Part shown: positions 32,300-64,000 of the stretch, in pieces
How the letters are laid out: every line of letters begins with the position of its first letter
Numbering within the stretch: position 1 is the first letter of the stretch
Origin: Eledone cirrhosa
Lineage: Eukaryota
Assembly: GCA_964016885.1 (NCBI GenBank)
Contig: OZ024741.1
Coordinates: forward strand, 51,398,001 to 51,462,000
Length of the DNA stretch: 64,000 nt
Direction: 5' to 3'
Position numbers and translations under genes: made by a program
The notes under the pieces: model-generated
Seen by the model: only the letters and a program-made list of their open reading frames with translations
What the model was told of the DNA's origin: nothing
Databases searched by the model: none

Positions 32300-35200
32300 T
32301 CTATGTATCAGCCATTACGGTTCTCACTTCCACCACATTCGGTATACATGTCTGACGCTGTATGATAACCACTCCCTCGTGAATATATCATAGAAAAGAC
32401 AAGGGGCGGACAGAGGTTCCGTAAGCCTTAATGCAGGCAACTCGTCTAGGAGAGCTACCACTCCGAATAAATAGGTGCGGGTTAGAGAAGTCCCCTAAGT
32501 CCAGTAAGACAACTTCTCTAGTGCTGGTGGCACGAATAAAAGCACCCAGTCCATGCTGTAAAAATGGAAGGGTGGTTAGGGCCCCTGAGTCCAGTAAGAT
32601 AACCTCTCTAGTGCTGGTGGTACGAATAAAAGTACCTAGTCCATGCTGTAAAATGGAGGGGTAGAGAGGGCTCCTGAATCCAGTAAGACACCCTCTCTAG
32701 TGCTGGTGGCACAAATAAAAGCACCCAGTCCATGCTGTAAAGTGGTGCTGGTGTTAGGAAGGGCATCCAACCAGTATAATAAATGCCAAAATTATGAGCA
32801 CAACAAATAAGAATTGCAACAACTGCGTCAACACAATAACACCAACCATGTTAGGGCTGCACACAGTAGAGGGGTAGCTGGTGCGGCCATGTGCGAGAAC
32901 TCCCCGACCGTCATCAAGCAATCGCACTACAGGAACAGGAAAAGGAACAAGAATATGAAGACGTCACATCGCAGAGTTGCAACACTTAATGTTGGCACTC
33001 TCACAGGTAGATCTGCTGAAATAGCGGAGATGCTGGAGAGAAGGCATATGGATGTGGGCTGCGTGTAAGAGGTGAGATGGAGAGGTGCCTCTGCAAGACT
33101 AATCGCAGGCAAACATTTTACTTATAAGCTCACTTTCTGGGTGAGTAATGATGATGGGTTAGGGGGAGTAGGCATTTTCCTGGCTGAGAGATGGATCGAT
33201 AAGGCAATAGAGGTAGTTAGAGTTAGTAATAGAATAATTAAGCTTAGATTAGTTGTAGGCAAGAGACTACTGACAATCATCTCTGCCTATGCTCCCCAGG
33301 CAGGCCTAGGTAAAGAAGAGAAAGACTGCTTTTACGAGCAACTTTTACAAACAGCCGCAATGACAGAGGACGGAGACATCGTTATGCTAGCAGGAGACTT
33401 CAATGGACATGTTGGACAGGTCCAGGATGGTTACACTGGGGTACATGGTGGGTATGGTTACGGCTCAAGAAATGAAGAAGGAGTGAGACTTCTTGAATTT
33501 TGTGATGCAAGTGCACTGACTATTTGCAACACTATCTTCCAGAAACCTGCCAATCACCTAATAACCTACAAATCAGGCGAGCACATAAGCCAGATTGACT
33601 TCTTGCTAGTTAGGCAGCGGGACAGAAAGATGGTGTCAAATACCAAGGCATACCCCAGGGAAGAATGTACCCCCACAGCATAGGTTAGTCGTTAGTGATA
33701 TCGCAGTAAGCAAGACACGGAATGAGACATACAGGAAGGTGTGGAGAAGAAAAGTCTGGAAGTTAAAAGACTTTTCACTAAAATACAAATTTAGGAAAGC
33801 CCTTCAAGATGTGTATGACGAAAAAAAAGACGATTTAGAGTCGTATGACATAGATGATAGCTGGAATTCTTACGTGACAACTTACTGCAGGCTACTGAAG
33901 AAACTTGTGGCTGGAAAGAGCTCCAACCAGACAGAGAGTGACTTGGTGGTGGAGCAGCACGGTAGATAGGGCCATTAGAGACAAAAGATTGGAAAAATGC
34001 TTGGAAAAATACTTGGAAAAATGGTGGGAGTAGAGAAGGATATACAGCCGCTAAGAGAGAAGCTAGACATCAAGTGTACTTAGCACGCAGGGAGGCTGAG
34101 AGTAGGAGGTTTGCCAATGTTCTGCGACGGGAAGATCAGAGACGTATGGTGTTCCGCATTACAAGGCAGTGTGTCAGTGCAAATCAGGATGTTGTTGGAG
34201 ATAAGTGTGTCCGGAATTATGCCGGTGTACTTAGTGTCACGAATGATCAGAAAAAGGAGGCCTGGAAATGTCATTATGACAGACTGATGAATGTGGAGAA
34301 CGAATGGGAGAGAGAGAAATTACCTCCAGTATATCCGACAGAGGGACCAGCTATTGAGATTGACGAATATAGGGTCCAAGAGGCGATTAAGGAAATGAAA
34401 AATGGTAAGGCTGCTGGACCGTCGGGGATAGTTGCTGAGATGCTGAAGGTATCAAGGGACGTAGGCACTAAACTGGTTGCACGCATCATCAATCAGGCTA
34501 TATACGGTGGTGTCATACCCAAAGACTGGTGCAGCAGTATTCTCATAAATTGCTACAAAGGTAAAGGGGATGCTCTGGAGAGGAGCAATTATAGGGGCAT
34601 AAAACTAATGGATCAGGTCATGAAAGTAGCAGAAAGGATATTAGCGCAACTAATTAGAGAAAGGTTCAAACTAGATGAGATCCAGTTTGGTTTTGTGCCT
34701 GGGAAAAGTACAACGGATGCCCTTTTCTTAGTGAGACAATTACACGAGAGGTTCTTAGAGAAGAATAAGCCACTATACTTAGCTTTTGTTGACTTAGAGA
34801 AGGCCTTTGATAGGGTACCCTGATCTGTCATCTGGTGGTCCCTAAGGAAGCTGGGTGTTGAGAATGGCTTGTGAGGACAGTGCAAGCTTTGTACAGAGGT
34901 GCTGTCAGTAAAGTGAGGGTAGGAATGGAGTTTAGTGAGAAATTCCAGATACAAGTAGGAGTACATCAGGGTTTGGTCCTCAGCCCACTCGTGTTCATTA
35001 TAGTCCTCCAAGCCATAACAGAGGAATTTAAGACTGGCTGTCCATGGGAACTTCTCTATGCTGACGATCTGGTTCTTATAGCAGAATCAGTAGAGGAGAT
35101 GGAGAATAAATTCTGGCTATGGAAACAGCAGTTGGAATCAAAAGGATTGAGAGTGAACCTAGCTAAGACAAAAGTGTTGATGAGTAGAAAAGAGGACAAA

Positions 35201-36042
35201 ACTCTGATTCCGCCAAGGAAATGGCCATGTTCGATATGCAAAAAAGAAACTGGCATAAATTCTATAAAATGTACACAATGCAGATCTTGGGTATACAAGA
35301 GATGTAGTGGGATAGCAGGCAAACTAACAGGTAGGGAGAAATACGTATGCAGTAGATGTACAGGGAAATTTGACAGTAGAAGTCGCATTGATAATGCAGG
35401 TGGGTGCTATAGAAGTGGTTGATAGCTTCCGATACCTAGGTGATCATATTAGCATGGGAGGGGGGGGGGTTCCAAGGCCATAGTATATAGAATAAGGACA
35501 GGTTGGAAGAAGTTTAGGGAACTGCTTCCTCTGGTGACGAAGAAGGGTTTCTCCCTGTGTATGAAAGGCCGGTTATATGATGCCTGTGTGAGGAGCGCGA
35601 TGCTGCATGGTAGTGAGACATGGGCAGCAACTGCAGAGGATATGCAACGGCTGGAGAGAAATGAGGCAAGCATGCTCCGTTGGATGTGCAATGTCAATGT
35701 GTGTGAACGGCTGAGCATGGATGTGTTGAGAGAGAAACTGTGTCTGAGAGGGATAAATTGTTGTGTGTGGGAGAGGAGACTGCGAGGGTATGGAGATGTG
35801 ATGCGCATGGAGGATGACCGATGGGTGAAGAAGTGCCAAGAAATGCCAGTTGAAGGAAGACGTAGTAGAGGAAGACCACAAAAAACATGGGCGGAGGTGG
35901 TGAGAACATACCTCAGATCGCTGAAGCTCACGGTGGAGATGACAAAAGACCGTGACAAGTGGAGAGATGCTGTGCTGAATAGGACCTGTCCCACCCTTGC
36001 AAGCAGGGAAAAACGGATGTAAAATGATGATGATGATGATGA
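32300..36042 (+). mobile_element. Near full-length RTE-clade LINE (single APE-RT ORF, disrupted)
   Basis: EN ATLNVGTL..GDFNGHVG..SQIDF (~32950-33680); RT QFGFVPGKSTTDA, DLEKAFD, GVHQG, LLYADD (34074-35422); C-terminal part 35534-36022; (TGA)n tail 36024-36042. The 5' limit is approximate. Confidence 0.93.
32491..32770 (+). repeat. About 3 tandem ~90-bp units in the RTE 5'UTR
   Basis: Repeated (c)cctgagtccagtaaga..ctctagtgctggtggcacgaataaaagcacccagtccatgctgtaaa; the last unit runs into GGTGTTAGGAAGGGCATCC. Confidence 0.85.
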
Positions 36043-36050
36043 CATAGATA

Positions 36051-39000
36051 TGTTTCTTTATTAGCCACAGGGGCACAAAAGAAGGGGACAAATACAAAGG
36101 GGGAAGTTTACATACAATAAAAACGTGTAAAATATTATCACAAATGCAATTTAAAAATGAATCGATTTTCCCCAATAGGGGGAGACATTACATATGGGTA
36201 ACACATACCCCCGAAAAAAAAATGTGCAACCCTCATCTCCAGGAGTACGAAGAGTTTGTACCGCTTTCCTCTCCTCCTCTTTTTCCTCAACCTACAGGCT
36301 GATATAGAGAGAAGGCCCATTCACTCGGGCCATTCTCGCCACTTTCACCCACCTTTCATAAAACTTGCTGGGGTACAGCACCTCTCTCTCCATCCTGCTT
36401 CTTCTTCCAAAGTGGTATTTGAAAAAAAGAATCAGTTGTTGGCCGGAGAGAAAGGTGTCTGACCTCAGCCCTTTCAACCTTGTCCACCATACAACCTCTT
36501 TCGCCATAGCTATCACACAAAGGAAAACCGCCTCTCCTTCGTTTTTGAAGGAGGGTGGCGGTTTGATCATGCCAATGGACTCGGTGGTCAACCGGATTGG
36601 TCCCACCCGCGACTATTAGTCGTTCTACATAGCCCCACAGGTCGGTGACGCCCAGGCAGTGTATTAATGCGTGTGCGACGGTTTCTTCGTCTCGCACGCA
36701 CCTCGGACAGATCTTTTTTGCAGGGTCCCTGCTCGGGCGCCCATGTCTGTAGAGCTTGTCTCGAACTGGTAGAGCTCCTCGGTAGCACTGCCAGGCCAGG
36801 GACTTTTGGAAGTTGTCCATCGGTCCCGAGCGGAAGGTTCTACCGAACAGACTGGCCAGTTCGTCTTCCCCTACGCCCAGAGTTTCACCGAGCACGTCGT
36901 CGCACTTGCTGCGAATCAACCCTCTATAGAATGACGAAGTGGAGTCTCCACTGATCGCCGGGTCCGTTTGCCAGAGGGCTGTGAGCGCCTGAGCACATTC
37001 GATGTGCCAGTCGCCCATTTTCCTCGGTCTTTGCTTGACCCAGGACTGCAGCTCGGTCAGCGAGACGAGTCGTGGGAAGGCTCGCCTCACGAACGGGGCC
37101 CACACTGGTTGTCCGGTGAGGAATACGTAGAGATGCCGCAGCCTGAGCGCGTGTTTGCGCATCGTCAGCCACGGCATCCCCAGCCCTCCGTTGGAAGGGC
37201 GTTGGCAGCAGATGGATCTTCTCACCAAAGGAGCCCGCCTCTTCCAAAGGAATTGGAAGAGCGCGCGCTCCATTTTGGCGAGCGTTTTGGCTGGACAAGG
37301 CACGACGGTCAAGCGGTAGTAGATGGCGGATGCTATAAAAGTGTTCGCCACCTCCGCTCGACCTTTCAAGGATAGTTTGCACTCCGCCCACTTCTGGGTG
37401 AGTGCAAATACCTTGGCCGACACCTCGTTCCAGTTCTTCTCCACCTGGAGGTCCGGACCAAACCAGACCCCGAGCAGCTTTACTGGTCCTTCCGTCCAGC
37501 GTCCGACGACGCCATCGGAAGGCATCGGTCTGCCTCTCCACGATCCGAGTTGCAAACCGATGGACTTGTCCCGGTTCAGCTTCGCTCCTGTGAACCTTTC
37601 GTATTCCTTCAGTAAGGTGCCGACTTCCTCAATTTGCGAGGCGCTCGACACCATTACTGTCACGTCGTCGGCGTAGGCCGACGCCGCTTTCCGCAGTCCC
37701 GGTTCCAGAGGGATGCCCTGCAAAAGCTCCAACTTCCGCAGTAGTGGCTCGAGAGTCAATACGTACAGAAGGGAGGAGAGAGGGCATCCCTGTCGAATGG
37801 GTCGCGTGATATGGAACGGCTCCGAGAGGTAGCCGTTCACCTTAACCCTTGAGCAGATGTTGCTGTTATGAATTGCAGCAATCCAGCCCCTGAACACGGG
37901 TCCGAAGCACACATCTGCTTCGGCTCACGTATCACGCGTCCGTTTTGTTCCTTCAAAGACAGAATCGTGGACTTGTTGCCACTTTTTGCCTCCGTCACTC
38001 GGGCCCAGCTAACAGCTTTGGTACCCTCGTTTCCCAGAGCACGTATTTTGCTTCTGACAACGCAGCCCTCATGCTTTGCGTCGAAGAACTGGTCCAAGGC
38101 CATTCTCGTTGCTAGCACGCTGGCTACGTTGCCACTTCTAATTGCCTCTTCTACTTTATCTACCAGTTCTTTCTCGGTTCTATTTCTATCTAACGCTAAT
38201 TCTTTACTAAAAACTAACGAGTCTAATCTAACTGCCCTCTTGAGAGAGTACCACCATCTGTTGTTGACAATGGCCCCTGTCAAATGCTGTTTAACTAAAG
38301 TGCTAATCCGTCTACTGTAGGCTTTGCATGTCGGTAACGACAAGTTCAGCTTCCAGTAGCCGGGTCCTTGTCTATGGGTTCTATCAAAGTTGACCATGCA
38401 GGTCATTAGTTTGTGATCTGAATAGGCAACCATGAACATTTGTGGACAGCTTAACATGTCCCTATCCTTATTTCTAGCAAGAACCCTATCTAGGTACGAT
38501 CTAGATGTTCCGCTACGATTAGTCAACGTCCACAGTGGCACAGTCGGAAAATCTAGTCGATATCTATCGGCCAGGTCAAATCGGCCGATTAACTGTTTGA
38601 GGATGTTACACCCCCCCCTTTATCGGGACATGCTCCCACATAGTCCCAACGTGCATCTAGGATTCCATTCCAGTCCCCCACTAAAAGCAAGGAGCGGGAC
38701 GTTCCCAGAAAAGTCTCTAGACGTTTGAAGAAGTCTGGCCGCGGTGTCCCGGATGGGGCATATGCGGCCACCATCCTGAAAGCTCCACCTTCACTACCGT
38801 CAACGTCTAGGACCACCAGTCGACCCCCCGGGTCCAGATGTACCGTCTGTGTTACGAGGCCCAGGTGTTTCCGCAGCAAAACGGCAACTCCGCCCTCACC
38901 CCCTGGCTGACAGAGAGATGCGTAGATCTCAAAGTCATCGAAGATGGGGGCCAGCTGTCGCTCGCTGTGGATCCTGGACTCGCAAATGGCTACTACATCC

Positions 39001-40977
39001 ATACTGTGCGACCTGAGGTCGTTTAAGAGTTTGCCCTGTTTCCAGGGCATCCCCAGGCCGCGTACATTCACACACCCAACTCTTATCTTGGCCATGTTGG
39101 TTCTGAAAAATTAAAAGAGAAGAAAACACTCACCTCTTCGTCTCCCGGGGATCAGGCCGCACGATTTCCATGAAGGGTCTTAGAGGAGTTGTCTGGGTGG
39201 ATGGTGGTTTCCGGCGGGGTGGGGATGGAGATGTTTGGTGGAGTGGGGGTGTCTGGGGTGGGGGTGTCTTGGGTGGGGGTGTCTGGGGTGAGGGTGGGGA
39301 AACATTTTAAAAGGACGCGGTTAATGGGTTTAACACAAGGATTACCCACGTCCTTAGGAAAGTTTTCCTTTAAAGACTTATAGGTGTCCGTAGGGACCCT
39401 AATCATATTTAAATTAGGTTTGTCTACACAGTTTGAAAAAGTTTTCCCTTCGGTTTTCACCGAAGGGTCGTTAGAGATGACCTCCATTAAAGTTTTGTTT
39501 TTACTGTTTATGTATGTGTAATGTTCTTGTTGTGTTGCGGTGGTTTTTGTCTGTTGTTCTTGTGGGAGCTTTCGTTTTGTTGTAGGTGTTTGTGTTTGGA
39601 GTGATGTCGTGGTTTTGTTTTCGGGACGGGGGGTTTTTGTTTGTAATGTTTGTGTTGTTTGTGTTGGTGGTTGTATGTTTGTAGTGATGTTTGTTGTTTT
39701 TTTGTTCTTGTGGTGTCTGTTCTTTTTTCTTTTCGAACGGAGAGGCTCTCCCTCATCATCACTTGGTGATGATGTGGGGGCCTCGTCCGTTGTGGTGTCT
39801 GTGTTATTTGGAAGGGGTATGTTTTGGGGAGCTGTTGTGTTTGTGGGTGTTTTTGCAGTGGTTTTAGGTGGAGTGGGGTTGGGTGGGACTGTGCTTGCAG
39901 GTTGGTTTGTTGTTCTTGTTTTGGTTGTGTTTGCGTGTTGTTGTTGTTGTGGTGGTGGTGGTGGTGGTTGTGTTGTTGTTTTGGGTGTTGGCAGTAGTGC
40001 CTCTTTTTTTTTTAGTTAACTAAGGACAGTAAGCCTTCAGGTGACCACTGCTTAAACAGTGGTAACATGAAGGCCGCCTACCCTCAACAGAAATGTTTAT
40101 GTGTGAAATTCCATCCAGAAGCACACGTTGGGGTATTTTAGCTATCCGTTCTGGCCTCATTTGGACCAGAACTTCCATGCTTGTACCATTGAATGTGCCT
40201 CTGGAGGACTTTCCCACCGAAATGATGGTGTCTTCGTCGAAATCGATGAAGTCAGTTAAAATCCACCAGACGTTTACATTTGGTGCAATGTTCAAAATTT
40301 TTATTTTTTGAGTTCTTTTTCCCATATATGTGGGGAAAAAGGTGTAAAGGGGACACACAATCGGCGATACAGAATATTTTTGTGCTGTCAATTGGTCTTT
40401 CAACAACACCGAAATGCTTCCAAAAAGTTTCCCTTTTTGGATGAAGGCAATATCCTTCATGGAATTCTTCAGAACCAGTTCAATATCGTTTTGGGATAAC
40501 TGAACTGGTTTTTTCGACACATTTGAAGCAGTCCTAAAAATTACTGTTTTTAGAACAGTTTCTCTGCGTAACTGTTGAGGAGAAGTGATGCTGAAAGCAC
40601 CACTCTCACCAAAAGTTACGTACTGTTTTGCATCGCTTAACATTTCCCTAGCATTGGAAATGTCAAGGTATGTGAACAGTTCCGTCTTTTGGACGGTTTG
40701 AGCAAAAGAAATCTTTTCCTTGTTCGTGGAGTTGTACGTGTTGCTGCTGTTGGTGGTGGTGGTGGTGTTGTTATCATTGTTGTTGTTGTTGGTGGTGGTG
40801 TTGTTGTTATCATTGTTGCTGTTGTTGTTCTTGTTGTCATTCTTGTTGTTGTTGTTGTTGTTGTTGTTGTTCTGGTTGGTGTTGTTTATATTTTGCATGT
40901 TATTGGTGTTTGTGTTAGTGTTGATGTTACAATCAACGTCCAACATCGTGTTTTCAAAACTGACGACATTTTCGATG
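36051..40977 (-). mobile_element. Tx1/L1-clade LINE copy A (5'-truncated, internal RT deletion)
   Basis: ORF1 remnant with CCHC knuckle CYHCLSSGHLKAYC and a poly-Asn tract; ORF2 APE start MAKIRVGCVNVRGL (39095), RT AYADD, terminal CPRC..ETVAHALIHC; 3' end AATAAAGAAA without poly(A). Confidence 0.92.
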
Positions 40978-41000
40978 TAGATAGATAGATAGAGATAGAT

Positions 41001-44000
41001 TTCTTTATTTACCATAAAGGCATAAAAAGAAGGGACAAATACAAAGGGGGAGTTTACATATAATCGAGTAAAAAGAGTGTAACATGAAAATAATCGAAAA
41101 TAGCCCCAAAAGGGAGGGGCGTGATGGGGGTTGCACCCCCCCCCCCGAAAAAGTGTGCAATCCTTTGCCCGGGGAGCACATGGAGAAGGTGCTCCCCTCT
41201 CCTTTACTTCTTTACCTACAGGATGGTATACAGAGAAGGCCCATTTACACGAGCCATTCTCACCACTATCACCCACCTTTCATAAAACTGCCTGTGACCA
41301 AGCACCTCTCTCTCCATTCTTATCCTTCTTCCGAAGTGATATCGGAAGAAGTAGACCAGATTATGGCCAGAGAGGAAGTTGCCTGACCTCAGACCTTTCA
41401 ATCGTGTCCACCAAACAACCTCTTTCAACATGGCTATTACGCACAGAAAAACCGCCTTTGCTTCCTTTGTGAAGAGGGGAGGCGGTTTGATTGTCATCAC
41501 GGACTCGGCGGTCAATTTAATCGGCGCCACCCGCGACAGCAGTCGTTCGGCGTAGCCCCACAGATCAGCCACGCCCGGACATTGCACCAATGCGTGCGCA
41601 ACGGTTTCTTCGTGACGCACGCATCTAGGGCAAATCTTTTTTGAGGGATCCCTGCCCGGGCGCCCGTGTCTGTAGAGCCTCTCTCGAACGGGTAGAGCCC
41701 CCCGGTAGCACTGCCAGGCCAGTGACTTCTGGAAGTTGTCCATTGGTCCTGGGCCGAAAGTCCTACCGAACAGGCTGGCCAGTTCGTCTTCTTCCATGTC
41801 CAGCGACTCTCCAAGGGTGTCATCGCCCCTGCTAGCCACCAGCCCTCTATAGAATGATGAGGTGGATTCTCCACCGATGGCCTGGCCCGCTTGCCAGAGA
41901 GCCCTGAGCGCCTGAGCACACTCAGTGTGCCAGTCTCCTAGTTTTCCGGATCTTTGCTTGACCCAGGACTGTAGCTCGGTGAGCGAGACGAGTCTCGGAA
42001 AGGCTCGTTTCACGAACGGAGCCCACACCGGTTGACCAGTGAGGAATACCTGTAGGTGCCGTAGCCTTAATGCGTGCCTACGCATCATCAACCACAGCAT
42101 CCCCAGCCCTCCTTTCGAAGGTTGTTGGCAGCAGATGGATCTTCTCACCATAGGAGGGCGCTTCTTCCAAAGAAATTGGAAGAGCATGCGTTCCATGGTG
42201 GTGAGTGTTTCCTTAGGGCAAGGAACGACAGTCAGGCGGTAGTAAGTGACGGACGCTATGTAAATGTTTGCCACCTCCGCCCGGCCTTTTAGGGACAGCT
42301 TACACTTGGCCCATTTCTGGGTTAGTGCAAACACCTTGTTCGTAACCTCGTTCCAGTTCTTTTCCACCTGGAGGTCCGGTCCAAACCAGACCCCAAGCAA
42401 CTTTACCGGGCCCTCCGTCCAGTGTCCGACGACACCGTCAGGAGGCATCGGTCTGCCTCTCCACGTTCCGAGTTGCAGCCCGATGGATTTTTCCCGGTTC
42501 AGTTTCGCTCCTGACAACCTTTCGTACTCCTCCAGTAAGGTACCGATCGCCTCGATCTCCGAGTCGGTCGATACCATTACTGTTACGTCATCGGCGTAGG
42601 CCGACACCGCTTTGCTCAATCCTGGTTCCAGGGGGATACCCTGCAACAACTCCAACTTCCTCAGTAAAGGCTCGAGAGTCAATACGTACAGAAGGGAGGA
42701 GAGAGGGCACCCCTGTCGAATGGATCGTGTGATTTCGAACGGCTTCGAAAGGTAGCCGTTCACCTTGATCCTAGAACAGATGTGGTTGCTATGTAAGGCA
42801 GTTATCCAGCCTCTGAAAACAGGACCGAACCCAGCCGCCGCTAGCACCGCATCCAGGTAGCCATGGTCGATCCTATCGAAGGCCTTAGACTGATCCAAGT
42901 TGATCAGGGCCCCACCGAAGCCGGGTTTGTTGCCAACCCTCTCTATGATGTATCGCATGAGGTGGAGGTTATCGTGAATGGACCTGGATGGGATAGCACA
43001 TGTCTGCGCATCTCCCACCAGGCCACCCACGACAAGCGCCAACCTCTTTGCTAACACCTTGGCCAAAATCTTTAACTCTGTGTTTAGCAGGGTTATGGGC
43101 CGAAAATTATTTATACTATCTCCCTTGATCTCGTCCTTCCTCACCAGCGTGACTACGCCCTTGGCTACAGAACAAGGAATTCTCCCGTTCTGCTGCCAAT
43201 TGCAGTAGACCGCTTCGAGGAGTTCGGAGAAGAAGACCGGCATTGCTAAATAAAGTTCGTAAGGTATACTATTGAGACCTGGAGATTTGCGTCTGCTGCA
43301 TTGGCTCAGCGCATCTCCGATCTCATCAGCCGAGATTGGTCCCTCGCAGGACTCTGCCTCTTCGCTCGAGAGACGCGGTAGGCCGTCGAGGTATGGACCG
43401 AAATCCACGCCCCCGCCCGGACCCCCGCCTCCCCCGAACAATCGGGCAAAGTGTCTTTGAAAGGCCTCGCACATCTGCTTAGGCTCCCGGATCACCCGTC
43501 CATCTTCGTCTTGCAACGACCGGATGGTGGATCGATTTCCACTCTTAGCTTCTGTCACGCGGGCCCAGCCAACGGCTTTGGCCCCCTCATTACCTAGAGC
43601 ACGTATTTTACTTCGAATGACGCAGCCTTCGTGCTTTGCATCGAAAAACTGGTTCAAGGCCGTCCTCGATGCCAGCACTCTGGCCACATCTTCGCTCTTG
43701 ATTGCCTCTTCTAATTTACCTGTTAATTCTTTCTCGTTTCTATTCCTATCGGCAGCTAACATCTTGCTATAACTTATTGATTCTGTTCTAATCTCTCTTT
43801 TGAGAGATGCCCACCATTGGTTGTTGACGATTGCACCCGTCAACCTCTCCTTAACTAATCTGCTAATCCGGTTTCTGTAAGTCTCTTTTGCCGGTAAAGA
43901 CAAATTAAGTTTCCAGTAACCGGGACCCTGTCTATGTGTTTTCTCGAGATTGACTACGCAGGTCACTAATTTGTGATCCGTGTAGCCAACCGTGCGCATT

Positions 44001-46823
44001 TCTGGACAGCTTAATATGTCCCTATCCTTACTTCTAACTAAGAATCTATCTAAGTACAATCTAGATTGACCACTGTGGTTTCTCCAAGTCCAGGTAGGGA
44101 CAGTTGGAAAATCTAGTCGATATCTATCGACCAAGTTAAAACGGTCGAGTAACCCCTTGAGGCTGTTACACCCCCCTCTATTAGGTCATGCTCCTGCATA
44201 GTCCCAACGTGCATCTAGGATGTCATTCCAATCCCCCGCTAGAAGCAGGGAACGCGACGTTCCCAGAAAAGTCTCCAAACGCTGGAAGAAGTCGGGCCGT
44301 TCAGCTCCGAAAGGGGAGTAGACGGCGACCAGTCTCAAGGCCGCACTTTCACTACTGCCAACGTCTAGCACCAACAAACGACTCTCCGGGTCCGAGTGCA
44401 CAACCTGTACGGCAAGACCCAGGTGTTTTTGCAGCAGTACGACAACCCCACCCCCACCTCCAGGTTGACAGAGAGATGCATGCACCTCAAAGTCATCGAA
44501 GGTGGGGGGGGCCAGCTGCCGCACGACGCTGATTCGAGTCTCACAGATAACCATTACATTTATACTACATGACCTGAGGTCATTTAGAAGCTTTGCTTGC
44601 TTCCAAGTTGAGCCCAGGCCACGTGCATTCAAACATCCTACTCTTAACACATCCATGTGGGCGGCAGAGCCAAAGGAGAGTGTAGAGACCTACCTTTCCG
44701 CTTCCCGGGGTTCGGGTTGCACGACTTCCATGGGGTCGGGGGTGTTGGGTGAAGGGGTGTCTTGTGGTGGTGTGGGGTCGTCAGTGTGTGGTGGGGTTGG
44801 GGTGTTTGGAGTTGTGTTGGGGAGGGGAAGGGGAGGGGGAAAGCTTTTTAGTAGGACGCGGTTTATGGGTTTGACAGAGGGTGGTCCTACGTCCTCCTTA
44901 AAATCCTTTTTTAGTTTTTGGTAGAGGTTCATTGGGATCTTTATTAATTTTAAATGTGGGTAGTTTTCTGAAAAAACAAAGTTTACACCTTCGGTTTGTA
45001 CCGAAGGATTATTGTATATGAGTTCATTTAATTTATTATTGTTTCTGTTGATGTAAGTATAGTGTAATGTCTTTTTTTTGGATGGTGTGAGTGTTTCGAA
45101 GATGGGAGGGGCAGGTTTGGTTTTGTTTGTTGCTGGAGGGGTGTTTTCTGTTTTGTTGGATTGTGTTGAGATTTGGGTGGGGGTTGTTTGGCCTTGTGTG
45201 TTTTGCACATGTTTTCTTTTTTTCCTTTTAATCTGTCTGAAGGACTCCGTTTCTTCCTCCGAATTCGTTGGGTTATCTTCACTGTTGGAGGGAAGAGGTA
45301 TGTTTGCTGGTAATGTTTCCGTGTTGGTTTTCTTTGTGGGGGAGATGGATGTCACTATGTTAGACTGTGTTGTGTGTTGTATCTGCGGTGGTTGTGTTGT
45401 TTTATTGAGTGAGAGGTTGGGTGGGCCTGTATTTTGTTTTGGGGTAATGTGTTGTGACTGTTTGTGTTGTGGTGGTGGTGTGGTTTTACTGAGGGACGGG
45501 TTGGGTGGGACTGAGTTTTGTTGTTTGTTTATCTGTTGTGGTAGTGGTGGTGGAGCTGGTGTTGGTAGCAGGGTTTTCTTTTTGTTGAGTTGGGGACAAG
45601 CGGCCTTCAGGTGCCCTCTTCCTGCACAGATATGGCAGGACGGCCTTCTCCCCTCCACGCTAATGTTTATATACCCGTGGTCCTCTAATAGGATTCTGTC
45701 GGGTATTTGGGCGATGCGTTCAGGCTTCATTTGCACTACCAGCTCTATACCTGTTCCACTGAACGCATTGCCTGTGGTTTTTCCCAATGGAAATCACGTT
45801 GTCATTCACTGGATCGATGAAGCCAGCTATGAGCCAGCAGTAGTCCACATCTGGCATCATTGCATCCAGCCATATGCGTTGAGTTCTTTTCCCCATATAA
45901 GATGGATAAAAGGTAAAATTTTTCGAACGAATCGGTGACAAAGCACATTTTTTTGCCGCCGATTCGTTCTTCATGATAATTGCTAGGCTTCCATACAGTC
46001 TGTCTTTTCTTATGAAAGTGGTTTCATTAAGTACTTCTGTGAGTACTGTTTTGATATCTGCTTGAGAAGGCTGTTCAGGTTTTTTTGTACTGTTGTTGAT
46101 GGTCCGAAACTTGACCGTTCGGCTTTCAATGTCTTTGGTGAATTCTTGAGGCATTTTTACAGATAAAATACCATTCTCTCCTTCACTTATGTATTGTTTG
46201 GCGTCTGTGATCCTTCGTGCCACATCTGAAATATTTTCCGGTATATAAGTCAAAGATTTCTTTGTTTTCTGTGCAAATGAAATCTTGTCGTCTGCTTTGC
46301 TTTCTGTTATGGTGTTATTTTCAAATGTTATTTTTGTGTTTGTTGTGTCTTTGTTTGTGTTATTAGTATTGTCATGCAATTTTTCAAATTTTTTTTTTTC
46401 GTTGTTGGAATCCATGTCCAGATTTGTGTTTTCGTCATTTTTTTTCTCCGCAGATTCGTCTGTTTTTATTTTAATTTTTCCTTCCTTCTCCATGACGTTA
46501 GTTGGGAAGGAAGGGGGGGACTAAAGCGTGCGAGCTTACAACTCTTACCGCTGTCCCCCCACCACTATTTTCGTTCGCTGCGTTTAACATTTCTGTTAGA
46601 CGATTGAAATTTTTTTGCCACAAAATTTTTTAAAACAGGTTTTTCACCTCTAGGAGGGGTAAAGATGAGCTGACCCACCGCCTGACAGTTCAGACGAGGG
46701 GTCAAGCTACACAATTGTATCAAAATTAAGTTTGAACTCACAAAATTTCCTCAATAAATTTGAACAAAACTTCTGCGCGAAGTGAATTACATCCACACTG
46801 TAGAACAGACGACAGCTAGATTA
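41001..46823 (-). mobile_element. Tx1/L1-clade LINE copy B, apparently full length, 20-bp TSD in (GATA)n
   Basis: ORF1 46493-44690 (one frameshift near 45785; knuckle CHICAGRGHLKAAC); ORF2 44656-41216 (break near 44150-44186; 972-aa open RT portion). Identical atagatagatagagatagat at 40981-41000 and 46824-46843. Confidence 0.95.
41216..44656 (-). pseudogene. Tx1 copy B ORF2: APE endonuclease - RT - CCHC zinc finger
   Basis: VGCLNARGL, AGDWN, YTDH, KSPGLNSIP, RPITLLNTELKILAK, LDQSKAFDRIDH, RQGCPLS, AYADD, CPRCVRHEETVAHALVQC. Confidence 0.92.
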
Positions 46824-46888
46824 ATAGATAGATAGAGATAGATAGATAGATAGATAGAGAGAGGTGGAAATATTTTGGTTTAAATTTA

Positions 46889-55732: not shown

Positions 55733-58700
55733 AATACACATATATCATGTCTACAATACACATATATCATGTCTACAATACACATATATCATGTCTACAA
55801 TACACATGTATCATGTCTACAATACACATATATCATGTCTACAGTACACATATATCATGTCTACAATACACATATATCATGTCTACAGTACACATATATC
55901 ATGTCTACAGTACACATGTATCATGTCTACAATACACATATATCATGTCTACAATACACATATATCATGTCTACAGTACACACATATCATGTCTACAATA
56001 CACATATATCATGTCTACAATACACATATATCAAGTCTACACTACACATATATCATGTCTACAATACACATGTATCATGTCTACAATACACATGTATCAT
56101 GTCTACAATACACATGTATCATGTCTACAATACACATGTATCATGTCTACAGTACACATCTATCATGTCTACAGTACACATGTATCATGTCTATAATACA
56201 CATGTATCATGTCTACAGTACACATGTATCATGTCTACAGTACACATGTATCATGTCTACAGTACGCATGTATCATGTCTACAATACACATGTATCATGT
56301 CTACAGTACACATGTATCATGTCTACAGGACACATGTATCATGTCTACAATACACATGTATCATGTCTACAGTACACATATATCATGTCTACAATACACA
56401 TATATCATGTCTACAATACACATATATCATGTCTACAATACACATATATCATGTCTACAGTACACATATATCATGTCTACAATACACATGTATCATGTCT
56501 AAAGTACACATATATCCTGTCTACAGTACACATATATCATGTCTACAGTACACATGTATCATGTCTACAATACACATGTATCATGTCTACAATACACATG
56601 TATCATGTCTACAATACACATATATCATGTCTACAATACACATGTATCATGTCTACAGTACACATGTATCATGTCTACAATACACATGTATCATGTCTAC
56701 AGTACACACATATCCTGTCTACAGTACACATATATCATGTCTACAATACACATATATCATGTCTACAATACACATATATCATGTATACAGTACACATATA
56801 TCATGTCTACAGTACACATATATCATGTCTACAATACACATATATCATGTCTACAATACACATGTATCATGTCTACAATACACATGTATCATGTCTACAG
56901 TACACATATATCATGTCTACAGTACACATATATCATGTCTACAATACACATATATCATGTCTACAGTACACATATATCATGTCTACAGTACACATATATC
57001 ATGTCTACAATACACATATATCATGTCTACAGTACACATATATCATGTCTACAATACACATATATCATGTCTACAATACACATGTATCATGTCTACAGTA
57101 CACATATATCATGTCTACAGTACATATATCATGTCTACAATACACATGTATCATGTCTACAATACACATATATCATGTCTACAATACACATGTATCATGT
57201 CTACAGTACACATATATCATGTCTACAGTACATATATCATGTCTACAGTACACATATATCATGTCTACAGTACATATATCATGTCTACAATACACATGTA
57301 TCATGTCTACAATACACATCTATCATGTCTACAGTACACATGTATCATGTCTATAATACACATGTATCATGTCTACAGTACACATGTATCATGTCTACAG
57401 TACACATGTATCATGTCTACAGTACACATGTATCATGTCTACAATACACATGTATCATGTCTACAGTACACATGTATCATGTCTACAATACACATGTATC
57501 ACGTCTACAGTACACATATATCATGTCTACAGTACACATGTATCATGTCTACAATACACATATATCATGTCTACAATACACATATATCATGTCTACAATA
57601 CACATATATCATGTCTACAGTACACATATATCATGTCTACAATACACATATATCATGTCTACAATACACATATCATGTCTACAATACACATGTATCATGT
57701 CTACAATACACATGTATCATGTCTACAATACACATGTATCATGTCTACAATACACATGTATCATGTCTACAGTACACATATATCATGTCTACAGTACACG
57801 TATATCATGCCTACAATACACATATATCATGTCTACAGTACACAGTATCATGTCTACAATACACATATATCATGTCTACAATACACATATATCATGTCTA
57901 CAATACACATATATCATGTCTACAGTACACAGTATCATGTCTACAATACACATATATCACGTCTACAATACACATATATCATGTCTACAATACACATGCA
58001 TCAAGTCTACAATACACATGTATCATGTCTACAATACACATGTATCATGTCTACAATACACATGTATCATGTCTACAATACACATGTATCATGTCTACAG
58101 TACACATCTATCATGTCTACAGTACACATGTATCATGTCTATAATACACATGTATCATGTCTACAGTACACATGTATCATGTCTACAGTACACATGTATC
58201 ATGTCTACAGTACGCATGTATCATGTCTACAATACACATGTATCATGTCTACAGTACACATGTATCATGTCTACAGTACACATGTATCATGTCTACAATA
58301 CACATGTATCATGTCTACAGTACACATATATCATGTCTACAATACACATATATCATGTCTACAATACACATATATCATGTCTACAGTACACATATATCAT
58401 GTCTACAGTACACATATATCATGTCTACAATACACATATATCATGTCTACAATACACATGTATCATGTCTACAATACACATGTATCATGTCTACAGTACA
58501 CATATATCATGTCTACAGTACACATATATCATGTCTACAATACACATATATCATGTCTACAGTACACATATATCATGTCTACAGTACACATATATCATGT
58601 CTACAATACACATATATCATGTCTACAGTACACATATATCATGTCTACAATACACATATATCATGTCTACAATACACATGTATCATGTCTACAGTACACA

Positions 58701-61700
58701 TATATCATGTCTACAGTACATATATCATGTCTACAATACACATGTATCATGTCTACAATACACATATATCATGTCTACAATACACATGTATCATGTCTAC
58801 AGTACACATATATCATGTCTACAGTACATATATCATGTCTACAGTACATATATCATGTCTACAGTACACATATATCATGTCTACAGTACATATATCATGT
58901 CTACAATACACATGTATCATGTCTACAATACACATCTATCATGTCTACAGTACACATGTATCATGTCTATAATACACATGTATCATGTCTACAGTACACA
59001 TGTATCATGTCTACAGTACACATGTATCATGTCTACAATACACATGTATCATGTCTACAGTACACATGTATCATGTCTACAGTACACATGTATCATGTCT
59101 ACAATACACATGTATCATGTCTACAGTACACATATATCATGTCTACAGTACACATGTATCATGTCTACAATACACATGTATCATGTCTATAATACACATA
59201 TATCATGTCTACAATACACATATATCATGTCTACAATAGACATATATCATGTCTACAATACACATATATCATGTCTACAGTACACATATATCATGTCTAC
59301 AATACACATATATCATGTCTACAGTACACATATCATGTCTACAATACACATGTATCATGTCTACAATACACATGTATCATGTCTACAATACACATGTATC
59401 ATGTCTACAATACACATGTATCATGTCTACAATACACATGTATCATGTCTACAGTACACATATATCATGTCTACAGTACACGTATATCATGCCTACAATA
59501 CACATATATCATGTCTACAGTACACAGTATCATGTCTACAATACACATATATCATGTCTACAATACACATATATCATGTCTACAGTACACAGTATCATGT
59601 CTACAATACACATATATCATGTCTACAATACACATATATCATGTCTACAATACACATGCATCAAGTCTACAATACACATGTATCATGTCTACAATACACA
59701 TGTATCATGTCTACAATACACATGTATCATGTCTACAATACACATGTATCATGTCTACAGTACACATCTATCATGTCTACAGTACACATGTATCATGTCT
59801 ATAATACACATGTATCATGTCTACAGTACACATGTATCATGTCTACAGTACACATGTATCATGTCTACAGTTACACATGTATCATGTCTACAATACACAT
59901 GTATCATGTCTACAGTACACATGTATGATGTCTACAGTACACATGTATCATGTCTACAATACACATGTATCATGTCTACAGTACACATATATCATGTCTA
60001 CAGTACACATGTATCATGTCTACAATACACATGTATCATGTCTACAATACACATATATCATGTCTACAATACACATATATCATGTCTACAGTACACATAT
60101 ATCATGTCTACAGTACACATATATCATGTCTACAGTACACATATATCATGTCTACAATACACATATATCATGTTTACAATACACATGTATCACGTCTACA
60201 GTACACATATATCATGTCTACAATACACATATATCATGTCTACAATACACATGCATCATGTCTACAATACACATGTATCATGTGTACAATACACATGTAT
60301 CATGTCTACAATACACATGTATCATGTCTACAATACACATATATCATGTCTACAATACACATATATCATGTCTACAATACACATATATCATGTCTACAGT
60401 ACACATATATCATGTCTACAATACACATATCATGTCTACAATACACATGTATCATGTCTACAATACACATGTATCATGTCTACAATACACATATATCATG
60501 TCTACAATACACATGTATCATGTCTACAATACACATGTATCATGTCTACAGTACACATATATCATGTCTATAGTACACGTATATCATGCCTACAATACAC
60601 ATATATCATGTCTACAATACACATATATCATGTCTACAGTACACAGTATCATGTCTACAATACACATATATCATGTCTACAGTACACATATATCATGTCT
60701 ACAATACACATGTATCAAGTCTACAATACACATGTATCATGTCTACAGTACACATGTATCATGTCTACAATACACATATATCATGTCTACAGTACACAGT
60801 ATCATGTCTACAATACACATATATCATGTCTACAGTACACATATATCATGTCTACAATACACATGCATCAAGTCTACAATACACATGTATCATGTCTACA
60901 ATACACATGTATCATGTCTACAATACACATGTATCATGTCTACAATACACATGTATCATGTCTACAGTACACATATATCATGTCTACAATACACATATAT
61001 CATGTCTACAGTACATATATCATGTCTACAATACACATATATCATGTCTCCAGTACACATGTATCATGTCTACAATACACATGTATCATGTCTACAGTAC
61101 ACATGTATCATGTCTACAATACACATGTATCATGTCTACAGTACACATGTATCATGTCTACAGTACACAGTATCATGTCTACAATACACATATATCATGT
61201 CTACAGTACACAGTATCATGTCTACAATACACATATATCATGTCTACAATACACATATATCATGTCTACAGTACACAGTATCATGTCTACAATACACATA
61301 TATCATGTCTACAATACACATATATCATGTCTACAATACACATGCATCAAGTCTACAATACACATGTATCATGTCTACAATACACATGTATCATGTCTAC
61401 AATACACATGTATCATGTCTACAATACACATGTATCATGTCTACAGTACACATCTATCATGTCTACAGTACACATGTATCATGTCTATAATACACATGTA
61501 TCATGTCTACAGTACACATGTATCATGTCTACAGTACACATGTATCAGGTCTACAGTATGCATGTATCATGTCTACAATACACATGTATCATGTCTACAG
61601 TACACATGTATCATGTCTACAGTACACATGTATCATGTCTACAATACACATGTATCATGTCTACAGTACACATATATCATGTCTACAATACACATATATC

Positions 61701-64000
61701 ATGTCTACAATACACATATATCATGTCTACAGTACACATATATCATGTCTACAGTACACATATATCATGTCTACAATACACATATATCATGTCTACAATA
61801 CACATGTATCATGTCTACAATACACATGTATCATGTCTACAGTACACATATATCATGTCTACAGTACACATATATCATGTCTACAATACACATATATCAT
61901 GTCTACAGTACACATGTATCATGTCTACAATACACATGTATCATGTCTACAGTACACATGTATCATGTCTACAGTACACATGTATCATGTCTACAGTACA
62001 CAGTATCATGTCTACAATACACATATATCATGTCTACAGTACACAGTATCATGTCTACAATACACATATATCATGTCTACAATACACATATATCATGTCT
62101 ACAGTACACAGTATCATGTCTACAATACACATATATCATGTCTACAATACACATATATCATGTCTACAATACACATGCATCAAGTCTACAATACACATGT
62201 ATCATGTCTACAATACACATGTATCATGTCTACAATACACATGTATCATGTCTACAATACACATGTATCATGTCTACAGTACACATCTATCATGTCTACA
62301 GTACACATGTATCATGTCTATAATACACATGTATCATGTCTCCAGTACACATGTATCATGTCTACAGTACACATGTATCATGTCTACAGTATGCATGTAT
62401 CATGTCTACAATACACATGTATCATGTCTACAGTACACATGTATCATGTCTACAGTACACATGTATCATGTCTACAATACACATGTATCATGTCTACAGT
62501 ACACATATATCATGTCTACAATACACATATATCATGTCTACAATACACATATATCATGTCTACAGTACACATATATCATGTCTACAGTACACATATATCA
62601 TGTCTACAATACACATATATCATGTCTACAATACACATGTATCATGTCTACAATACACATGTATCATGTCTACAGTACACATATATCATGTCTACAGTAC
62701 ACATATATCATGTCTACAATACACATATATCATGTCTACAGTACACATATATCATGTCTACAGTACACATATATCATGTCTACAATACACATATATCATG
62801 TCTACAGTACACATATATCATGTCTACAATACACATATATCATGTCTACAATACACATGTATCATGTCTACAGTACACATATATCATGTCTACAGTACAT
62901 ATATCATGTCTACAATACACATGTATCATGTCTACAATACACATATATCATGTCTACAATACACATGTATCATGTCTACAATACACATGTATCATTTCTA
63001 CAATACACATATATCATGTCTACAATACACATGTATCATGTCTACAATACACATATATCATGTCTACAGTACATATATCATGTCTACAGTACATATATCA
63101 TGTCTACAGTACACATATATCATGTCTACAGTACATATATCATGTCTACAATACACATGTATCATGTCTACAATACACATCTATCATGTCTACAGTACAC
63201 ATGTATCATGTCTATAATACACATGTATCATGTCTACAGTACACATGTATCATGTCTACAGTACACATGTATCATGTCTACAATACACATGTATCATGTC
63301 TACAGTACACATGTATCATGTCTACAGTACACATGTATCATGTCTACAATACACATGTATCATGTCTACAGTACACATATATCATGTCTACAGTACACAT
63401 GTATCATGTCTACAATACACATGTATCATGTCTATAATACACATGTATCATGTCTACAATACACATATATCATGTCTACAATAGACATATATCATGTCTA
63501 CAATACACATATATCATGTCTACAGTACACATATATCATGTCTACAATACACATATATCATGTCTACAATACACATATCATGTCTACAATACACATGTAT
63601 CATGTCTACAATACACATGTATCATGTCTACAATACACATGTATCATGTCTACAATACACATGTATCATGTCTACAATACACATGTATCATGTCTACAGT
63701 ACACATATATCATGTCTACAGTACACGTATATCATGCCTACAATACACATATATCATGTCTACAGTACACAGTATCATGTCTACAATACACATATATCAT
63801 GTCTACAATACACATATATCATGTCTACAGTACACAGTATCATGTCTACAATACACATATATCATGTCTACAATACACATATATCATGTCTACAATACAC
63901 AGTATCATGTCTACAATACACATATATCATGTCTACAATACACATATATCATGTCTACAATACACATGCATCAAGTCTACAATACACATGTATCATGTCT
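55733..64000. repeat. 22-bp satellite array (consensus ARTACACATRTATCATGTCTAC), >8.2 kb, runs off the right edge
   Basis: Hundreds of near-identical monomers, occasional 20-bp variants and recurrent diagnostic point variants. Confidence 0.99.

Follow-up and report, generated by a model that had tools for sequence, protein, structure and literature searches.

Two sister L1/Tx1-type LINE families with an apparent oriented preference for (TCTA)n/(GATA)n repeats in Eledone cirrhosa

Background

Why do two different long interspersed nuclear elements (LINEs) stand head to tail inside one short (GATA)n tract? The question is raised by a stretch of Eledone cirrhosa DNA (assembly GCA_964016885.1, contig OZ024741.1, forward-strand positions 51,398,001 to 51,462,000), whose 64,000 nucleotides are called the window here. 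An initial annotation, made from the sequence alone, had proposed that the two elements, copies A and B, come from a Tx1 lineage in which a sequence-specific endonuclease of the apurinic/apyrimidinic type (APE) targets (GATA)n. We followed this proposal in the window and across the genome (3.0 Gb).

In our assessment, A and B quite likely represent two sister L1/Tx1-type LINE families that prefer (TCTA)n/(GATA)n in one orientation, through an APE endonuclease that would nick the GATA strand at 5'-GATA|GA-3'. The preference is graded: it favours a short TC|TATC motif that is strongly enriched in tracts, and it is not a strict specificity.

Results

Two elements in one tract

The two elements, their open reading frames (ORFs) and their junctions are listed by window position.

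41001..46823, minus strand: copy B, a full-length LINE of 5.8 kb (5' untranslated region, ORF1, ORF2 and 3' untranslated region ending AATAAAGAAA)
44690..46590, minus strand: ORF1 of B, with one CCHC knuckle, a C-terminal half rich in Pro, Thr and Asn, and two frameshifts (near 46513 and 45778)
41216..44656, minus strand: ORF2 of B (APE endonuclease, reverse transcriptase, zf-RVT), 98% identical to the intact copy L097, with an in-frame stop at 44186-44188
40981..41000: 3' copy of the 20-bp target-site duplication of B
46824..46843: 5' copy of the same duplication
46844..46862: rest of the (GATA)n tract upstream of B
36053..40977, minus strand: copy A, of a sister family, 5'-truncated by about 290 nt and with about 640 nt of ORF2 deleted
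39152..40949, minus strand: ORF1 of A, with a frameshift near 40020
36292..39095, minus strand: ORF2 remnants of A, equivalent to residues 1-161, 159-395, 609-1039 and 1040-1145 of the B protein
36045..36052: 3' junction of A, with an element-borne CA (36051-36052) and then the target TATCTA (36045-36050)
40978..40983: TAGATA at the truncated 5' end of A, overlapping the duplication of B
36024..36042, plus strand: (ATG)6 tail that bounds the tract, from an unrelated opposite-strand LINE

The architecture described initially was largely recovered. Both copies lie on the minus strand and each ends AATAAAGAAA without poly(A); the duplication around B is exact over its 20 bp, contains the interruption GATAGAGATA and allows no extension in either direction; and TAGATA borders A at both ends (36045-36050 and 40978-40983). 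The 40978-40983 copy is likely the 5' copy of a short duplication of A. Both elements had also been described as ending straight into (TCTA)n-like sequence, which is true of B and not of A: beyond AATAAAGAAA, A continues with CA, TATCTA, TG and the (ATG)6 tail of the other LINE, that is, 1.5 units and no tract.

Both copies are broken, B by its stop and frameshifts. A starts about 290 nt inside the full-length start of other copies, lacks ORF2 residues 396-608 (junction 37907/37909) and carries frameshifts as well. The two share 72-79% identity at the DNA level, 71-82% in the ORF2 pieces and 45% in ORF1 over the alignable 232 aa, and this protein divergence argues against a tandem duplication, in agreement with the initial annotation. 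With both elements removed, the flanks would close into a single TCTA tract of about 10 units with A at its last unit. A would have entered there and B later, into the same tract; this order is likely, since A is the more decayed copy.

A decayed plus-strand LINE with an (ATG)n tail, presumably RTE-like, spans about 32900-36042 of the window and abuts the target site of copy A.

Genome-wide ends and flanks

The exact 25-mer of the B end occurs 1483 times in the genome, with TMTATM next in 1429, and the exact 28-mer of the A end 5846 times, with NNTATM next in 5502 and CA, TA and TC variants at the A-family ends. Extraction of genomic 3' flanks, proposed as a check in the initial annotation, thus gave a fixed strand and phase. 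At least two TATC units were present in 22 of 30 B and 25 of 30 A 3' flanks. By themselves, 3'-end counts do not tell a target from a tail.

On the 5' side, TATCTAT stood within 12 nt upstream of 267 of 358 minus-strand B starts genome-wide (plus-strand matches count elements several times and were hence set aside). For an unselected set we took the first 60 B ends on contig C1 (L091-L150), with the flank not a criterion. The chimera L113 and the identical duplicate L122 were left out and the junctions of L105 and L108 corrected, giving 58 copies. A tract was defined as at least four TATC within 40 nt upstream, and the background comprised 20 stretches of 10 kb (200 kb), holding eight TCTA tracts.

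A tract preceded 35 of the 58 copies, 15 followed one to three TATC, six (TA)n and two none of these; 0.058% of background windows satisfied the tract definition. Were all TCTATC hexamers equally good targets, tracts would receive 27% of the copies, fewer than the 35/58 seen (p = 8e-8), and (TA)n, roughly 30-fold commoner than (TCTA)n in the background, nevertheless received only its six copies. No reverse-orientation insertion was found among 60 B copies and 25 A-type starts. The data did not support a bias of insertions toward either tract end (median 32 nt to the left and 20 nt to the right, p = 0.14, n = 35). Neither the genome-wide ends nor the 58 copies sit in the diverse flanks that the initial annotation had named as a possible refutation. 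The B family appears young: 43 of the 58 copies begin at the same place, a high full-length share for a LINE, the median identity of 44 full-length copies to window B is 97.6%, and both ORFs are open in L097, L106 and L123.

L121 and L122 are identical B copies within a satellite of about 30 bp, whose unit holds TCTATCTAT, with a 22-bp duplication.

Duplications and the junction motif

In 14 copies the duplication was unambiguous and ran into non-repeat sequence (16-23 nt). Their 3' side equals the 5' duplication copy from TAT onward, with zero added units. Because no units are added where the duplication reaches non-repeat sequence, the tract is a target and not a tail. A merely element-encoded tail, the other possible refutation, would not be expected to leave TCTA upstream of the elements or in reconstructed empty sites; it was found in both, the 5' flanks of some truncated copies among them.

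TC precedes TAT at the target in 12 of the 14 copies and at 4.8% of comparable background TATC sites. Among TA-type copies with a located duplication, 8 of 10 have TA at their own end and TC at the target. The two bases past AAAGAAA, which in B read TA or TC, are clustered on a 48-copy tree, with 8 changes versus 15.6 after shuffling and 0 of 500 shuffles as low; they are therefore RNA-templated, although kin share labels and the result bears on inheritance only. Since this target C would have no partner in the RNA, 5'-GATA|GA-3' is probably recognised on the cut strand by the protein. Overall, the proposed (GATA)n targeting stands as a strong oriented preference for TC|TATC and falls as a strict specificity, given the (TA)n sites and the sites beside one to three units.

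A poly(A) signal lies 4 nt before the element end, and the last 40 nt of A, B and the (ATT)n family described below are predicted to form a similar small hairpin (fold prediction without shuffle control). TATC also closes several other types of 3' end, whose ORF2 C-terminus shares 52-86% identity with that of B.

A sister family on (ATT)n

A related family turned up among the loci examined, once in the random background. Represented by L237 (G000:C1:11286122-11293022), L102 and L189, it shares the 3' architecture and stacks too. Its end occurs 7210 times genome-wide; the 3' flanks were (ATT)n in 28 of 30 cases and TCTA in 0 of 30, and about 17 of 20 5' junctions, read by eye, contained (ATT)n. 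The 28/30 of this family, the 35/58 of B and the 3'-flank counts of A and B given above all exceed the 20% of flanks used as a criterion of target specificity in PMC4494074.

The intact ORF2 of L237 is 67% identical to that of B. Endonuclease identity is 60-62% between the two lineages and 73-78% among A, B and a third TCTA family, and 33 of 235 endonuclease positions are fixed differently between the TCTA and ATT groups. One of these, S194/I, falls at the position of the L1 hairpin tip, as placed by alignment and the anchors of PMC1950540. As a candidate determinant of specificity it is a lead only, because the Tx1L hairpin grafted onto the L1 endonuclease did not transfer specificity in the experiments reported there (PMC1950540).

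To look for a third target class, we used a generic pattern of the 3' end, which matched 522 ends. Of 30 inspected, most proved to be TCTA or ATT junctions that had mutated; one (TG)n case and one (TTC)n case were exceptions. In a metagenome scan (54 loci, mostly 22-34% identical), no TCTA or ATT tract was seen at the nine loci inspected.

Proteins and clade placement

The intact B copy L097 encodes an ORF1 of 626 aa with one CCHC knuckle and an ORF2 of 1145 aa. ORF1 had no Pfam match. ORF2 of this type matches PF03372, PF00078 and PF13966, the last (zf-RVT) at 26.9 bits, just under the cutoff of 27.5. The knuckle, C-x2-C-x4-H-x4-C, is present in ORF1 of B, A and the ATT family, and a CCHC zinc knuckle in ORF1 is a feature of the Tx1 clade. 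Among solved structures, human L1 ORF2p is the best match of ORF2 (E 1.5e-50), and the closest fold to our endonuclease model (58-row alignment, pLDDT 94.8) is the human L1 endonuclease (TM 0.79). The elements thus show what defines an APE-type LINE of the L1 superfamily: an ORF2 with APE, reverse transcriptase (RT) and zinc motif, a separate upstream ORF1, target-site duplication and 5' truncation.

The closest named homologs are Argonauta hians proteins (63% and 67%), the RT has matches of 28-40% (277-429 bits) among named proteins of turtles and fishes, and one fungal match carries the name TX1. Human L1 scores 175 bits against ORF2 and 150 other proteins score above 306 bits. On an RT tree of 67 rows, built by a quick method with unnamed homologs and no L1 row, the TCTA families and an Argonauta protein form one starred group, with the ATT family adjacent. 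These results are consistent with Tx1 membership and are not proof of it.

The 3' halves of A-type elements occur with more than one type of 5' untranslated region and ORF1: the upstream identity of L256, L258, L265 and L266 to window A is 81-83% versus 92-94%, which suggests an exchange of 5' modules. L198 (G000:C9:20000001-20010000), from the random background, is a distant APE-RT element, 27% identical to B and on a long branch of the tree. Elsewhere in the window, a 22-bp tandem array of at least 378 copies occupies 55733-64000 and runs off the window end.

Discussion

At the mechanistic level, the reading we favour is that of two sister families preferring (TCTA)n/(GATA)n through their endonuclease. 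After nicking of the GATA strand at 5'-GATA|GA-3', a transcript that runs past AATAAAGAAA into the donor's own TCTA flank –as the position of the poly(A) signal implies– would offer a UAUC stretch, with which the nicked DNA end would pair and prime reverse transcription. Since priming would occur there, no poly(A) would be copied. A second cut about 20 bp off would produce the duplication, and the insertion would leave target repeat on both sides, so that copies of any sister family could later stack head to tail. The sister lineage, with its 60%-identical endonuclease, would act likewise on (ATT)n. Of the sequence-specific endonuclease lineage proposed initially, the targeting is supported; the endonuclease as its cause is what we infer from the sequences, and RNA-DNA pairing probably contributes.

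Several observations weigh against this reading. Targeting is not strict, with 23 of 58 B copies outside any tract. The tract share is lower in truncated copies: 29/43 full-length versus 6/15 truncated in B, and 8/11 versus 4/14 among the 25 A-type starts (window copy included), of which six truncated and one full-length lack any TATC; later deletions may explain part of this. Where the right-hand match is short (17 sites), a tract flanks the junction on the left in only 3, which makes the minimal site a short one. The duplication of A in the window is only about 6 bp, which is atypically short. Besides, the empty sites were reconstructed from junctions and are not independently sequenced alleles, all 60 B copies come from one contig, and with eight tracts in 200 kb of background the fold-enrichments are rough.

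More tentatively, and with slightly less than even confidence, we propose that these families form an undescribed octopod Tx1-type radiation. It would have split onto (TCTA)n and (ATT)n through few endonuclease changes (the 33 fixed among 235 residues, including S194 to I), together with read-through RNA carrying the donor's target. If this is true, each insertion duplicates some 20 bp of target, landing sites multiply and mixed head-to-tail stacks form.

The strongest competing explanation, which we consider unlikely, is that RNA-DNA pairing does most of the targeting: the endonuclease, being weakly specific, would nick widely, and only ends complementary to the RNA 3' UAUC repeats would prime well. 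Such pairing of the RNA 3' end with target DNA has been proposed for SART1Bm and R1Bm (PMC7265360), and it would suit the target-identical sequence at the end of every family, the inheritance of the first two bases past AAAGAAA, the sites that match just 4-7 nt right of the junction, and L102, where TCTATC stands at the 3' junction ahead of an (ATT)n run. However, the Tx1L endonuclease alone nicks almost solely its own site (PMC1950540). Moreover, the abundant (TA)n, able to pair with UAUA, was seldom used (6/58), and TA-ended copies took TC targets on the non-pairing side in 8 of 10 cases, against the 4.8% of the background.

It is far less probable that (TCTA)n is a tail made by the element, the apparent target being the tails of earlier copies combined with purifying selection or repeat clustering. 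Microsatellite-rich regions tolerate insertions, which would favour it, and a crude count of motifs places a sibling end next to 34 of the 58 B copies; the other 24 have no sibling motif nearby, and just one of eight background TCTA tracts came after such an element. At the non-repeat sites L092, L110, L121, L124 and L146 the 3' side equals the 5' duplication with no units added, and selection does not account for the 35:0 polarity or the fixed phase. This explanation is largely refuted already. A local duplication or an artefact of assembly is hardly credible as the origin of the stack: the region is repeat-rich, and the contigs of four sequencing runs yielded none that spans the locus and no empty allele, but A and B differ as described, belong to dispersed families of their own (5846 and 1483 exact ends), and B has its exact duplication.

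A repeat starting GGCGGGTAAAATT beside TCTA tracts was considered as a partner SINE (short interspersed nuclear element) and rejected, since another LINE, lying on the opposite strand, appears to have it as its 3' end. That LINE, which we take to be RTE-like, ends in a short (TAGA)n tail (L172, L075, L197, L200, L238) and adjoins two of the eight background tracts. It may seed GATA repeats later used by the TCTA families.

Targeting of GATA/TCTA and ATT by Tx1 families is, in our judgement, probably new. The microsatellite targets on record for Tx1 are (TC)n, (TTC)n, (TTCC)n and (TTTC)n (PMC4494074), and the list in the available part of a review has ACAY, AC, TC, TTC and TAA, with GATA/TCTA absent (PMC3812793). 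In the sections available, an Octopus vulgaris repeat annotation reports 13 recently active L1-Tx1 families and does not contain the word "target" (PMC13282606), and a gastropod survey reports no targets (PMC11203168). In the literature searched, no Tx1 family is assigned a GATA/TCTA or ATT target; one may be listed in Repbase, in Kojima and Fujiwara 2004, or in the supplements and known-target figure of PMC4494074, all of which lay outside the search.

These findings bear on how the APE endonucleases of LINEs acquire or switch sequence specificity. The TCTA and ATT lineages are young and high-copy, live in one genome, share the 3' architecture, retain intact ORF2 (L097, L237) and use different repeats; as a natural pair they stand much closer to each other than L1 and Tx1L do. 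They add GATA/TCTA to the listed microsatellite targets and account for the LINE stacks of this genome, and octopod GATA markers may often adjoin mobile LINEs.

Compared with known systems, Tx1L of Xenopus laevis likewise lacks poly(A) and duplicates about 20 bp of its target. It shares an L1-group APE endonuclease with sequence-selective nicking, which is predicted for the elements here; Tx1L targets one site in the Tx1D transposon, unlike the repeats here, and its hairpin tip is two residues longer than that of L1, whereas the hairpin here (T189-S199) has the L1 length (PMC1950540). SART1Bm, TRAS1 and R1Bm are similar in their endonuclease-directed insertion into short repeats and in the proposed pairing of RNA 3' end and target, but they belong to the R1 clade, use telomeric or ribosomal DNA targets, and SART1 copies bear poly(A) (PMC7265360, PMC1919474). 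Dong (TAA)n, Waldo (ACAY)n and Mino (AC)n are also microsatellite-targeting LINEs, but of other clades, and the Dong repeat is that of the ATT sister family (PMC3812793).

In their targets, these families most resemble the teleost families Kibi, on (TC)n, and Koshi, on (TTC)n, and the crocodilian (TTCC)n and (TTTC)n Tx1 families, likewise two-ORF APE-type LINEs in microsatellites (PMC4494074, PMC3812793). (TC)n flanks are occasional among the copies examined (L098, L110, L173); the target is (TCTA)n, so by target the families are not of the Kibi or Koshi type. Those repeats consist of pyrimidines only, unlike (TCTA)n and (ATT)n; here, moreover, an invertebrate is the host, and the two targets are divided between sister lineages of one genome.

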